From positions 12,980-76,979 of the forward strand of contig CARMXJ010000001.1 in the NCBI GenBank assembly GCA_949025205.1: a DNA stretch of 64,000 nt, in the 5' to 3' direction. This DNA is from an uncultured Bacilli bacterium. GTDB taxonomy: Bacteria > Bacillota_I > Bacilli_A > RF39 > UBA660. Position 1 is the first letter of the stretch. Each line of letters starts with the position of its first letter. Positions 57,001-63,000 of this stretch are shown here, piece by piece. The position numbers were made by a program.

Positions 57001-60000
57001 TTTCTTGGGGAATGTCGATAGGGAAACTAGGACGATTGGCACATGTTGATAGAGAAACCATCAAGGAAATAGAAACAGGTAAAATAAAACCTGATTTTTT
57101 CGATATGCTAAATATTTGCGAAGTCTTAGATTCTTCTATTTATTTTTATATAAAAGAAGATAAGAAGAGGGTAAAATGGCAAAAGAAGTAAAAGAAGAAA
57201 TAGTTTATCAAGTCTCTTTTGATCCATATAAAATTGGAGTTGAAAAAGGAGATAGTAAAAAAATATTTGTTGATGGTAAACAAATTGCCTTATCGGTTGG
57301 TAGTCAAATAAATATGAAGTATGGTTTTAAAAGTACATTGTTAATAGACGTGCATTATGATAGTGATAATAAAGCAACATTGACAGAACAAATTCCACAA
57401 CTTGAAGGATTCGGAACTATAGTTGCTTTAAATCCAAAATTTAAGGATAAAAAAACGATTGAGAAGTTAAAAGAATTAGATATTATTTCACAAACTTTGG
57501 AAACAGTAGATTTTAATAATAAAAAGTATGAATTAGTTAAAGTTAATTTAGATGAACTGATGTTATATAGGCCTTTTGGAGATTCAATTCTAAAAGATTA
57601 TAAAAGTATTGAAAAACATAGAGAAAATTCTAAGGGAAATGAAATATGATAGAGAAGAAATGTTATTTTTATAATGTAGGGAAGACTTTTGATAAAAATG
57701 ATTTTAAAGAATTAAAAGATGATTGGAATTGCAATCCTCATTGTTGTAAATCAGATTTATGTAATGGTTTATATTGTGAAGATTATGGAATTAACTTTAA
57801 TAAAGAAGAGACTATCAAAAATATAAAAAAATATGTTGAAATTGGGGTTAATAATACTTATGGATATATGAAAGAAGTAACTATTTCTTTACCAAAAGAT
57901 TTATGGAAAGAGATTTATACTAGCTTAGTAGAAGATTATCGTTTTAAGAATATTAGAAATGCTAAAAACAATGGAATTATACCTTATGAATTTCATGAAA
58001 TTATAGAAGATTATTCTTCATATTGGGAAGAGCCGGATATATCCTTTTGGAAAGATAATGGCGATATAAAACAAAATGTTATACATGTTTTAAAAGAATC
58101 AGAACTTGATTCAGAAACAATAAATTGGGTAAATGATAATTTATATCATACCTCAAAAGAAATTGAGATTGGAGGAATGTAAATGTTAGTATTAGGATCA
58201 ATAATATTATGTTCTCTTGTATTATTTATCTATTCTGCTTGTGTAGTATCTGGTAGATGTGCAAAGGAAGAAGAAAAGAGATTAAAATAGTATGAATTAT
58301 AAAGATTTAATAGGTATCAAAAATCCAGACTTTAGAACTTTAGCTTATATTTCCAATTTTTGTAAATTACCAGAGTTTATGTATATGCGTCCAGATTATT
58401 TGATATTAAAAATCCATCATGTAATGGAAGATAAAATAATTGCATCTGTAGGTAAGGAAGGAACAAAAGAAGTTTACGATATTAAAACGATTGATGGTAA
58501 AGATTATATCATTCCTGATAACGATCAATATAATCAAGTATGTCTTGATGATATGGTATTTATAGGTGTTGTAGGAGAAATTAAAGATAATAAGATTTAT
58601 CAAGAATATTTTAGACAAGGTGATATTTACAAAAATGATATTGTCTTTGAGAAAACTAAACATTTGTCAAAGGAAGAAATAGATAAATTACCACTCATAA
58701 ATAAAATTTGTTATATTCCAGAAGGAGCTTTTGAAGATAAAGAATATATTGATTTAAATTCAAAAGATTTAAAAGATAGGGAAGATTATTTTACTGTATT
58801 TAGTATTAAGGAAGTCATCAAAGATCATTATGGGAACGATATTTATGAGAAGATTCCAGAAAGTGATTTAGATAGTATGGTCGAAGATGTATTTGATACA
58901 CTTGATTGGCAATATCCATCTTCTTTACTAGATGCTGACAATTATTTAGATGGCTATATGAAAGAATTGGGACTTGTAGAAAGTGAGTATGAATATGAGT
59001 GATAACAGTTATTATGAATTTGAAGATATCTTTAATGAACTAAAAGATAAAAAGTTAAGTGAATTATCTACTAGAGATATTGGAAAATATTTATTAGTAG
59101 CGGAGGAATTAGATTGGGTAGATGAAAATATAGGAGATGATAAAATTTTTTATGATTATGATAAAAACTTATTAGAAAATTTATCCTATAATTTTGCTGA
59201 TGCCATTTTTCGTTTAATTCATGAAGAGCTATTGTATGATAATACATTACATACTGAACCAAATGATATAGAAGAGAAGGAGAATTATGAACTTGGATAA
59301 AGTATATGTTGTTACAGATAACTGTATCTGGGATGATGAAGATTATTCTCAAATTGTTGGTATAGCAACAACCAAAGAAATTGCCAATGAATGTTTTAAA
59401 AAGTATGTTGAAAGAGTAAAAGAAGAAATAGATATTGATAATTTGGATATATCTGAAAATGGTATAGATGATGGCTATATTGTTGAAGAAGATGAAGATT
59501 ATTTCAGCGTTTATAAAAATGGTGAATACAATAGTTATCATATATATATTTCTCTATATGAAAAAGAATTAATAAGAGAAAGTGAGATGGCGTTAGAGTG
59601 AAAGATATTATATTAGCAACTATGTTAAATTTTATTGGTAATAATTATGGCAGTCAAGAGATGGAAGATCCATGTTATGATATGGAAAAAATGGCAGAAG
59701 AAATATCAAATGCAATAGAAAAAATGGATAACTTAAAAGAAGAGGAAGTGGTGGAAACTTATGGACTTTAATAAGGTTATAGAAGATATGAAGAATCTAC
59801 AAGCAAAAGTAGATTTATATGAAAATAAAGAAAAGGTTATTACTGATGCTATAAACAGTATTCAGAAAGATATTTTAAAATTAGAAAAGAAAATTGAAAA
59901 AGAATCTGATGAGATAAGCAAAGAAATTCTAAAATTAAAAGTTTTAATTATGAAAGAAGTTGCAGGAAGATTTCAAGTATAATTGAAAATTTTACTTGCT

Positions 60001-63000
60001 AATAAAGGAGGTATTTTTGGAACAAGAATTTTTTGACTTTTTACAAAGTAGTAGTAATTTGCAAACCTTTAATTATGGCAATAATTCAAAAATAATGGTA
60101 AGCAAAGTTAGCTATAATGATAAAGTAGATATTTTATATAGTTTAAGAAGTTATAGTGGTGAATTATTTAATTTAGATTCTCCATTCAAATATTCAGGAA
60201 TCTATGATAAAGAGAATAATAAATTATTTGATTTAGAATATAACATTAGATGTGATATTCTAAATTGGGATTATGGAGATGAAAGACTAATTGATAGTTC
60301 TCAACTATATGAGATGATTTCTGATGATGTTAATGATAAAATTAGAGAGTTAGTTAATGATAGTAAAGATGAAATATTTGATCTAAAAGATGCTGAATTA
60401 GGAGATGAGCTAACTGATAACGATGTTATTCATGATTTTATGGATGGTTATACATCTTCAACATTTGAAGATAACTATGTAGAATATTCAGCTAGTAAAC
60501 CAAAAGATATTTTAGATTATTTAACGAATAAAAAAGACTTTATTGAAGAAGACGCAAGAGATTTTATATTAAATCATCAATCAGAAATATTAAAAGGTCT
60601 TACTATTTCAAGAGAAAAAAGGAAGGCTTTAAAAAGAATTGAAGATGATGAAAATCATCTTTATCATAAAATAAAAGCTATCAGAAATTCTGTTAAAGAT
60701 AAAAATTATGTAACAATAAATTTAACTATTAACAAAGATGGAATTGAACAAACATTTAAATATAATGCTGCATCGCTTGTATCTAGTTATAATTCAAAAT
60801 TATCTTGTTATAATATTGAAAAGGTTTCTGATCGAGATAAATTTGAAGAAAATTTTGGTAGATGGAGTGATTTTGAATATAGAGATATTACTAAAATTAC
60901 TTATGGTAAAAACACAATCTATGAGGATGAAAACTTTAAAAATATGGATTTAGAGGAAGAAAATGTACCTACAAGATAGAACTAACATAGACAATTTTAA
61001 ACCATTGCTTGCAGATTATCTTGTAAATAAAAAAGGAATAAATAACTTAAATGGTTTATTTACTTGTTTGAATCCAGAACATGAAGACCGACATCCAAGT
61101 ATGGGTTATTATCAAAAGGCAAATAAATGTAATTGTTTTTCTTGTGGTGCTAAATATGATTTATTTGATTTAATAGGAATTGATTATAATGTGGATTCCT
61201 TTAAAGATAAGCTGGAAATAGCAAGCAATTTATATCCTAATGTAGAGATAGATGTACCTAAAGTTTATAATGTTTATTCATCGGATGATGATTATAAAGT
61301 AATTGATTTTACTAATTATTATGATAGATGCTCTAAACAGGTTAATAAAACAAATTACTTATCTACTAGAAATATTGATTCAAGTTTAATCGAAAAATAT
61401 AAAATAGGTTATGATGATAAAAGAGATATGATGGTATTTCCTATCAATAAAAATTGTTATTTTGGAAGAGGAGTTAATTCTAACATAAAACTAAAATCTA
61501 AAGGTACAAGTTATCTATGGAATGAAGATTTATTGAAAGATTATAACAATAATTTGATATATGTAACGGAAAGTATTATTGATTCTTTATCATTAGAAAC
61601 AATAAATAAAGATGTCAAAACAGTAGCACTTAATGGGCTACCAAATTATAAAAGACTTCTAAAAGTTATAGAAGAAAACAATTATAAAGGAAATTTAGTT
61701 TTAGCATTTGATAATGATAGAACTGGGATTTCTTATCAAGAAATAGTAAAGAATGAATTAGAAAAATTAGATATTCATTCTTTTTCTATTACATTAATTT
61801 CAACCATTGATGGTGTGAAAGATTTAAATGAAGCTCTAATGGTTGATCGAGAAAGATTAGAAGAAAATTTTAAATACTTTGATGAAAATTTTAAAATAAT
61901 AATTGAAAAAAAAGCAGAGGGGGAATTAAGTTTATGAAAAAAGTATTAAAAAATAATGAAGAAAATTTTATTGAATATATCGATTTACAAGTAGAAATTG
62001 ATACAGAAAAGAAAGTATTATATATTACCAATAAATCTTATGGTAACGAAGGAGTTGCTAAAAGATACAAAAATAAAAAAGACATTATGAGAATATTTGG
62101 TAATTATTTATTCAAAAAAGTTTATATTTATCCACCAAAAGATGAAAGATAATTTTAGATGGATAATAATCTTATAAAGAAAAAAATAAGTGAAAAAAAT
62201 AAAGCAAAAAAGAAATATTTAGAAAAATTAGAATTGTTAAAACAATCTTATGGAGTAGAATTTAAGATAGATAGTTTTAAAAATGATGATATAAATAAAA
62301 TCAGATTTTATAATATGAATTATCAAAAATCAATTAAAAATGTATCTATGGTTTATGATAATAAATATGGAAAATTTAACTATCTTTCTTATGATTATAG
62401 TGTTGAAAGAGATTCAAAAACTTTAAGTAACCATAAAATAATTGAAGATTTAAATAGAGAAAAGAAGTTGAAATTATTGGTGGATGAAATATTAAAATTT
62501 AATATCGAATATAAGCAAGAGCTTATGGAAATAGATAATAAATATAGCAATTCTAATCTAATATTTGAAGAAAAAGGAAAAGAATTAGAATTTGACAGAA
62601 AAGAGAAAAAAGAGTAGCTGTATTTACAATTGTATATACAAGTTTTTCCTTTAAATATAAGGATTTTCAATCAAAAAATAAGTGTCTGTATATACAAAAA
62701 GTCAGTTTTGTATATACATTTCGCAAGTGCGAAATGTGTTCTGGTGCACGAAAAATCGAAAAAAAGCCTTTATTTATAAGGCTTTTGAGATTTCGTGGTG
62801 TTTTCTCATATCCTGTTGAAAAATATTCTTCCTATTTTTGATTGAAAAGGGGTGATTTTTGAGATTATGGAATGTTATCGATTTACAAAAAGTGATTTAG
62901 TTTTACTAAGTAAGTTTATGAAAGAAAATGGAATAGATAATAAAACAGAAGCTCTAAGAGAATGTATTAAAAGAGGTGTAGCAAGACAAGATATTGATAG

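Follow-up and report, generated by a model that had tools for sequence, protein, structure and literature searches.

What are the strongly acidic small proteins encoded between the type IV secretion system (T4SS) genes and the primase gene of a mobile element in an uncultured Bacilli bacterium (GTDB RF39, UBA660), and do they serve against the defences of a new host? The genes lie in a 64,000-nucleotide stretch of contig CARMXJ010000001.1 (assembly GCA_949025205.1, positions 12,980 to 76,979), here called the window and numbered from its first nucleotide, with a G+C content of ~27%. They are most likely part of an integrative and conjugative element (ICE) of uncultured low-GC gut Bacilli. A preliminary description had put forward four acidic open reading frames (ORFs) as anti-restriction or anti-defence candidates of the ArdA type. 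We have found a run of five, A to E, of which A–D, together with a further gene, p178, are exchangeable cassettes that are shuffled, fused, and present or absent among related elements. E differs in kind: it belongs to the fixed backbone, is coupled to the primase and has a family that is spread over several classes of mobile genetic element; grouping it with the others, as was done at first, is not upheld. The anti-defence proposal itself survives in part: A–D act like exchangeable accessory cassettes in a context with an anti-restriction flavour, but they do not belong to the ArdA type.

Both the genes and their acidity proved to be real. When the window's non-overlapping ORFs on the plus strand with 50 aa or more (81 in all) are ranked by acidity, the top four are A, B, C and D, which are consecutive genes, a placement with p ~5e-5 under random gene order; E is sixth (Table 1). 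The GC skew also reaches its window maximum (0.41) in the 58–60 kb bin, as expected from GAN-rich coding. The four ORFs named at first (A, B, C and E) are all confirmed as acidic, while D and the neutral gene cc73 had been omitted from the list. Overlapping or coupled starts had been noted and are borne out, neighbouring genes of the block overlapping by 4–17 nt, with two corrections: homologues and independent gene calls place the start of B at ATG 58995 and that of E at TTG 60017, behind an AAGGAGG Shine–Dalgarno sequence. Between the two closest elements, dN/dS is 0.16–0.17 for A, B and E; p178, at 0.28, evolves fastest within the block. These values show that the block genes are real and under purifying selection, although they evolve 2–4 times faster than the T4SS core (0.04–0.10). 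A minus-strand ORF of 156 aa (59071–59541), rich in Ile and Phe, was rejected as a gene, since it is a shadow ORF antisense to the D/E-rich genes B and C.

In a hydropathy scan none of A–E has a transmembrane segment, and the sole hydrophobic segment of the block is in a 35-aa peptide encoded just before A. The five thus show the high negative charge density in a small soluble protein that marks the DNA-mimic class, and the net charge of −17 to −19 per 100 aa in B, C and D is in the range of known DNA mimics. Many otherwise unrelated proteins of the block and its counterparts also end in similar acidic/aromatic tails (..EYEY, ..NYEL, ..TYGL, ..EIEV), encoded in the window at the overlaps 58980–59000, 59280–59300, 59590–59601 and 59750–59771. 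We considered these as a secretion or docking signal and rejected the idea: the codons encode the Shine–Dalgarno sequence of the following gene together with its overlapping ATG (present, for instance, in TAT GAA), so that the tails are a by-product of translational coupling.

The absence of enzyme motifs from these proteins, remarked on in the preliminary description, holds for all of A–E, in which we found neither such a motif nor a family match. The proposed membership of the ArdA, Ocr, KlcA or ArdB families fails on sequence for all of them, no ORF giving a match at E ≤ 1, and for A and E it fails on fold as well. More widely, ArdA (PF07275), Ocr, ArdB/KlcA, ArdC and anti-CRISPR (Acr) families gave no meaningful match to A–E (Pfam at E ≤ 1; NCBIfam, PHROGs and PADLOC at E ≤ 0.1), the ArdB/KlcA profile being absent in both Pfam and NCBIfam at these thresholds. 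B has a weak match to phrog_10892 (E 0.0014). A weak match of C to Cas2 (E about 1) was dismissed, and hhalign shows no relation between B and E. Among PDB sequences the profiles of A, B, C and E have no significant match. AlphaFold2 models calculated with family alignments are confident for both A (pLDDT 87.7, pTM 0.77) and E (pLDDT 88.6, pTM 0.78), and neither predicted fold has a PDB neighbour. Neither model shows the elongated three-domain fold of ArdA or the fold of Ocr, to whose sequence none of A–E is similar, and a Foldseek search of the E model against BFVD returned nothing below E = 0.04. At the DNA level, megablast and blastn of the region against sequenced plasmids and phages found nothing meaningful. 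A tblastn search with A, B, C and D found no match in plasmids and one marginal match in phages, scans of IMG/VR for B and C found none, and a concatenated B+C+D query against an index of 5.8 billion proteins returned only one protein, the A–D fusion P0072.

The nature of A–D emerges from a comparison of 16 sister loci with an identifiable slot, extending from the M23 peptidase gene (where present) to E. A helix-turn-helix (HTH) regulator gene is found in all 16 and is the first gene in most, and cc73 is found in 14, in most of which it is the last gene before E. The content of the slot is nearly all acidic ORFs (pI, the isoelectric point, 4.0–4.9), and their occupancy varies: p178 is present in 8 loci, B in 8 of the 16, C in 4 and D in 2. 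DUF7222 proteins (~141 aa) occur in 12 loci and HsdM-like proteins (232–246 aa) in 9, and neither is in the slot of the window. A, with a beta domain at the N terminus and a helical one at the C terminus, carries the invariant sequences CYIPE..F and DWQ(Y/H)PSSLLDAD.YLD.Y and occurs in long (236–311 aa) and short (177 aa) forms. Fusions join A to a B-like (P0082) or a D-like (P0072) partner, and a 264-aa protein of locus L024 has the arrangement C-linker-C. Across elements B is 60–89% and C 47–88% identical, while the flanking E proteins are only 51–64% identical; that B and C stay well conserved beside such a neighbour indicates cassette exchange.

Two features of the relatives give this slot its anti-restriction flavour. 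The HsdM-like proteins (L007, at 8328–9029, and L013, L018, L019, L021, L022, L023, L025 and L026), labelled N6_Mtase, match only the N-terminal part of HsdM (positions 3–127 of 311 in Pfam and 159–301 of 515 in TIGR00497); they keep FxTP and motif I (DPACGSG) and stop before the catalytic NPPF motif. Judged from these motifs, they are plausibly catalytically dead fragments that might act as a decoy for type I restriction–modification (R-M) or bind S-adenosylmethionine (SAM). Secondly, a remote homologue of the core of A (CYIPE..F ... DWQxP) is encoded on an IMG/VR contig (hhalign probability 95.7%, E 1e-8). It and an ArdC-type MPTase-PolyVal zincin are two genes apart, and it belongs to a series of small ORFs of which several are acidic (L033:58–849, 1469–1834). 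Both hints come from relatives and not from the window.

E stands apart from the cassettes in its neighbourhood, its divergence and its distribution. In the window it overlaps the start of the primase gene by 17 nt. The E gene was found in 24 loci, 23 of which also show the primase, and the overlap is kept wherever both genes are held, even in the most divergent locus, where E is only 33% identical. It is also the most diverged backbone gene, with 44% identity between L001 and L009 against 69–91% for the other backbone genes outside the cassette exchange. In the model, an N-terminal beta domain is followed by an acidic helical middle (~70–190), a basic helix pair (~195–240) and a C-terminal alpha/beta domain. 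E carries the profile of its family (Y..G.Y, KTV.VTI.KDG.E.TFK, ITYG...IYE), of which the close relatives make up 68 clusters with 44–98% identity over at least 92% of the length, save three truncated clusters. A full HMMER search with this profile found 576 representative clusters (at 50% identity), and for 355 of these E was ≤ 1e-10. Among 117 representatives of full length, 93% carry a net negative charge, and the median is −11. The long members have no added domain known to Pfam, except for a degenerate resolvase-like N-domain in two, P0193 and P0055 (L027:728–2071), where the usual YxRVS context of the catalytic serine looks degenerate (YCRTAA and YCRSNN). The family is absent from PHROGs.

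Relatives of the C-terminal half of E (~31% identity over roughly half of the protein) are found in 73 Enterococcus faecalis pheromone-type plasmids. Two annotated enterococcal plasmids share the order coupling protein (T4CP), relaxase, ..., AcrIIA9-family protein, PcfJ, SSB (the protein that binds single-stranded DNA), par toxin, hypothetical protein, E-like protein, ..., nuclease. More distant relatives (22–29% identical) come from gut metagenomes. In six prophage-like loci of 54–56% G+C (L034, L035 and L038–L041, at about 8000–8930; L046 is a further locus), the E-like gene is directly upstream of the terminase large subunit, portal, ClpP and capsid genes, and in at least three of the six it is downstream of a ParB-N6/N4 methyltransferase gene. 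One distant locus carries a major tail protein, and in another the E-like gene is near those for a large M23-domain protein and the topoisomerase TopB. E is therefore a protein of mobile elements at large (ICEs, pheromone plasmids and prophages), specific neither to conjugation nor to the primase.

If the block acts in a new host, its position with respect to the origin of transfer (oriT) matters. It had been placed within about 3 kb of an oriT-like site, together with the primase; we find a conserved oriT 1.8–4.5 kb away and the DnaG-type primase gene adjoining. The oriT sits in a 235-bp intergenic region conserved in all related loci. It has four iterons, TGTATATACA, which co-vary between elements, a short hairpin, ACATTTCGCA-AG-TGCGAAATGT, at 62716–62737, a long imperfect inverted repeat with compensatory changes at 62747–62797 and, at 62806–62818, the invariant CCATATCCTGTTG, which contains the MOBP nick consensus TATCCTG|T. 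As single-stranded DNA the region folds with z = −5.9. On the 3′ side of oriT are two small putative auxiliary genes and a relaxase gene whose 3-His motif, LHTDRENNYHFHIAW, is invariant in 8 relatives. An oriT with inverted repeat and nick region and a 3-His relaxase 3′ of it is the arrangement of a MOBP/MOBL-type relaxosome. The relaxase protein has no match in Pfam, NCBIfam or PDB, nor in plasmids by tblastn. Its LHTDRENNYHFHIAW aligns with the motif III region of RelLS20, the overall hhalign probability being only 12%.

The direction of transfer depends on the strand that is nicked. The putative nick region reads GGTGCATTCCCATATCCTGTTG, and its 11-mer CATATCCTGTT occurs once per locus and on the same strand in 22 loci. 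Within it, TATCCTGT at 62809–62816 fits the MOBP consensus, (C/T)ATCCTG(C/T) (PMC3772185), and lies ~10 nt 3′ of the inverted repeat, a placement that is, for a candidate site, the canonical nick geometry. The octamer consensus is not rare alone, with 4 matches in the window against 4.6 expected, so that the weight of the candidate comes from its position and absolute conservation. Since the relaxase stays on the 5′ end, a nick here on the plus strand would cause p110, p75 and the relaxase gene to enter first and the acidic block last, with the coding (non-template) strand as the one transferred. In pLS20, which has the same relaxosome layout, the experimentally mapped nick is on the template strand (PMC5313138); with that polarity the primase, E, D, C, B and A would be the first to enter, on the template strand, which is the early-entry arrangement reported for the anti-defence genes of leading regions (PMC11541004). 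Mapping the pLS20 nick onto the oriT of the window by alignment gave only a marginal result (score 44, with shuffles at 26.6 ± 4.2 and a maximum of 51), which we did not accept, and the GC-rich repeat close to the pLS20 nick has no counterpart here. The evidence points both ways; we lean slightly towards the plus strand over the minus strand.

Our preferred reading, to which we give somewhat less than even confidence, is that A–D, and perhaps E, are directed at the host, as proteins of establishment or anti-defence. The block proteins would be made when the element reaches a new cell, as establishment proteins. The small Xre-type regulator that heads the operon makes plausible a burst of expression before the repressor builds up (zygotic induction, as in p576). 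A–E would then serve, in stoichiometric amounts, to inhibit or lure away DNA-binding proteins of the host, for instance nucleases of restriction or other defences and perhaps proteins of recombination or repair; their high density of negative charge would let them compete with nucleic acid. The timing, the targets and the mimicry are all parts of this reading that we infer. Its general elements have precedents: establishment genes of pLS20 and p576 that vary, are for the most part of unknown function and are controlled by a small repressor (PMC8708921), and anti-defence islands near oriT (PMC11541004). A fuller version is in our view doubtful: A–E would represent several novel inhibitor families directed at the host, with folds not seen before, in which B, C and D would be minimal nucleic-acid mimics, the core of A a module shared with ArdC-associated arrays, and E the founder of a large establishment or anti-defence family across mobile elements.

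Several observations weigh against host-directed proteins. A–E have no sequence or structural likeness to any characterised anti-defence protein (the fold being compared for A and E), and Pfam and PADLOC find no known anti-defence gene in the window's own block. A nick at the candidate site on the coding strand would make the block part of the trailing side, in contrast to the classical anti-defence genes of leading regions. Zygotic induction is an analogy only, since in most sister loci the terminator and the HTH gene are too close together to leave space for a separate promoter. Finally, the strict coupling of E to the primase fits a replication role equally well.

This last point leads to the alternative that survives best, which we nevertheless consider rather unlikely for the block as a whole: that E, cc73, p152 and perhaps the cassettes are replication or DNA-processing partners of the primase, SSB or relaxosome, concerned with second-strand priming or rolling-circle maintenance. 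It is strongest for E. The overlap with the primase start persists through extensive divergence; cc73, E, the primase and p152 are all backbone genes; the modelled basic helix pair of E could bind nucleic acid; the resolvase-like N-domain of the two divergent members stands where a DNA-binding domain would normally follow; and the enterococcal relative is near SSB. Outside the ICE family, however, relatives of E are not beside primases but upstream of terminase or between par toxin and nuclease, and the dispensability and interchangeability of A–D among sister elements would be unusual for core replication factors.

It is distinctly unlikely that A–E are T4SS chaperones or adaptors that, like VirE1 for VirE2, would keep a basic DNA-binding cargo (SSB, primase or relaxase) competent for transfer, or that they are themselves substrates injected into the recipient, as the modules of polyvalent proteins may be. 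Small acidic soluble proteins encoded directly after T4SS genes would suit such a role, the fusion and shuffling of modules resembles the logic of polyvalent proteins, and delivery as protein would remove any dependence on position relative to oriT. Yet neither a coupling protein nor a recognisable secretion signal turned up, overlapping translational signals account for the shared tails, as described above, and relatives of E occur in prophage-like loci without a T4SS. We regard it as very unlikely that the ORFs are compositional by-products or fast-evolving filler without specific function. The Glu-rich C-termini are partly forced by overlapping ribosome-binding sites, and the families occur in a single ICE lineage and are missing from the plasmids and phages so far sequenced, but filler would not be expected to show the dN/dS values of purifying selection, the conservation of B and C among elements whose E proteins have diverged, the confident models of A and E, or an identical element on at least 24 contigs. 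That the proteins are true ArdA/Ocr-type inhibitors of type I restriction, diverged beyond sequence detection, is hardly credible: the charge density of B, C and D, the setting near oriT in a conjugative element and the type I theme suggested by the truncated HsdM-like genes of relatives are outweighed by the failure of the Pfam and PDB searches and by the folds of A and E, for which family membership is already refuted.

The element around the block has the anatomy of a conjugative element (Table 1). At the end of the M23 peptidase gene a terminator-like hairpin, followed by a T-run, spans the stop codon (fold z = −2.7 as DNA) and is conserved with compensatory changes in 11 sister loci; it is the boundary between the T4SS genes and the HTH–acidic–primase block. 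The HTH gene begins 20–100 nt after this terminator, and its homologue in L007 has a weak precomputed match to HTH_3 (PF01381). The ATG of the relatives is ATA in the lineage of the window, where the gene probably starts at an internal ATG at 57012. A TATAAT in the spacer (56940–57015) was considered as part of a promoter between terminator and HTH gene and rejected, as it is not conserved in the relatives. A VirD4/FtsK-type coupling protein was found neither in the window from 44600 to 64000 nor up to 10 kb downstream of E in L007–L009. In the related locus L009 a serine recombinase gene is downstream of the relaxase gene, which makes an ICE the most likely form of the element. An identical element is present on at least 24 metagenomic contigs. 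The 15 related loci in gut metagenome-assembled genomes are labelled mostly as uncultured Bacilli, with one Tenericutes, one Bacillales, two Clostridia and two Muribaculaceae; the Muribaculaceae (Bacteroidota) labels (L012 and L015) are probably a binning error rather than a sign of cross-phylum transfer.

Table 1 Features of the element in window coordinates (net charges in parentheses are per 100 aa)
Feature	Position	Strand	Remarks
Thioester/SpaA adhesin	46344-50081		Upstream gene of the ICE
SSB, then T4SS_pilin-like protein	Between adhesin and p028-type gene		SSB 8 kb upstream of the acidic block
pLS20_p028 / Mycoplasma-ICE-type polytopic protein	51478-53139		Part of T4SS
VirB4-like ATPase	53434-55896		Part of T4SS
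M23 peptidase	55896-56912		Last gene before the block
Terminator-like hairpin and T-run	56898-56925	+	
Xre/HTH_3-type small regulator	57012-57191	+	First block gene; kept in all sister elements
p157	57176-57649	+	Variable cassette; function unknown; near-neutral charge; in 3 of 16 loci
p178	57646-58182	+	Variable cassette; mildly acidic; pI 4.86, net charge -11
Hydrophobic peptide	58183-58290	+	35 aa; one predicted transmembrane segment; maximum Kyte-Doolittle over 19 aa 2.46
A	58292-59002	+	236 aa; pI 4.45; net charge -24 (-10.2)
B	58995-59300	+	101 aa (105 from the first-described start, 58983); pI 4.08; net charge -19 (-18.8)
C	59287-59601	+	104 aa; pI 4.07; net charge -19 (-18.3)
D	59598-59771	+	57 aa; pI 4.05; net charge -10 (-17.5)
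cc73	59761-59982	+	73-aa neutral coiled-coil protein separating D from E
E	60017-60979	+	320 aa (327 from the first-described start, 59996); pI 4.6; net charge -25 (-7.8)
DnaG-type primase	60963-61937	+	CHC2 zinc finger and Toprim; Toprim_2 9e-14, Zn_ribbon_DnaG 8e-5, phrog_47 1.5e-20
p72 and p152	61934-62617	+	Basic proteins, function unknown, ending the operon; p152 a backbone gene
oriT	62619-62818	+	Iterons, two hairpins/inverted repeats, invariant nick-consensus segment
p110 and p75	62852-63415	+	Small putative relaxosome auxiliary proteins, in the position of pLS20 Aux1/Aux2
Relaxase	63418-64000 (runs off window)	+	N-terminal 194 aa of 480; 3-His motif; invariant Tyr25

Two observations lie outside the block. 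The gene after that for SSB (50500–51084) encodes another acidic protein (194 aa, pI 4.52, net charge −15), which is part of the backbone, is kept in all sister elements and gave no family match. Outside the ICE, at 35419–36294 and 39173–40084, the window encodes a DNA methylase of the C-5 cytosine class and an rRNA adenine dimethylase that resembles Erm (RrnaAD, E 8e-44) and could confer macrolide resistance.

Accessory establishment modules of conjugative elements are a kind already known, while the A–E families themselves match none that is known. Like the leading-region anti-defence islands of Samuel et al. 2024 (PMC11541004), the block is a cluster of small genes beside oriT in an element that also has SSB and primase, its content is mosaic among relatives, and methyltransferase-like genes occupy the slot in sister elements. 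Unlike those islands, it has no known anti-defence family, it may be on the trailing side, the transferred strand would be coding and not template if the nick is at TATCCTG|T, and no Frpo-like single-stranded DNA promoter was identified. With the establishment regulons of pLS20 and p576 (Val-Calvo et al. 2021, PMC8708921) the element shares a pLS20_p028-type protein, the series of oriT, two small auxiliary genes and 3-His relaxase, and variable sets of small uncharacterised genes with a small HTH regulator. It differs in having no ardC and in that its genes are co-directional and directly downstream of the T4SS, whereas there they form separate divergent operons; an EGeRS-like repeated regulatory sequence was not seen, though no search aimed at one was made; in pLS20, moreover, the coupling protein gene is directly upstream of the p028 gene.

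The order of genes resembles that of pCF10/pAD1-type plasmids (adhesin, SSB-like, VirB6/VirB3/VirB4-like, hydrolase, ..., oriT, accessory, relaxase), in which, by contrast, the E relative has its place downstream of the relaxase, in company with genes for an AcrIIA9-family protein, PcfJ and SSB, and is uncoupled from primase. ArdA (Tn916 Orf18, ColIb-P9) and Ocr are, like the block proteins, small, soluble, very acidic and found on mobile elements, but there is no sequence similarity, and for the folds predicted for A and E the PDB holds no neighbour. Polyvalent proteins and stand-alone modules in phages and conjugative elements were reportedly the subject of Iyer et al. in 2017. The likeness to these lies in uncharacterised domains that are shuffled or fused in varying combinations and spread over ICEs, plasmids and phages, and in the association with ArdC-type MPTase-PolyVal zincins and methyltransferase-like proteins; the differences are that here there are mostly separate small ORFs and not one giant protein, and that no described LPD/PolyVal Pfam domain is matched.

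The conjugative elements of uncultured gut Bacilli are poorly charted and, to our knowledge, what is known of anti-defence genes in Gram-positive ICEs concerns mainly ArdA, ArdC and a small number of anti-CRISPRs. The block provides a testable set of candidates, five small soluble proteins together with the DUF7222 and truncated HsdM-like cassettes of sister elements, and E defines a widespread orphan family with a confident model that has no neighbour in PDB or BFVD. Should the proteins turn out to be replication accessories instead, this would be ordinary biology. If any of them inhibits a host defence, the block would hold new inhibitor folds, and cassette slots beside oriT could be mined by charge and mosaicism where homology fails; if, in addition, the nick is at TATCCTG|T, this would be a trailing-side anti-defence operon relying on zygotic induction or on protein delivery.

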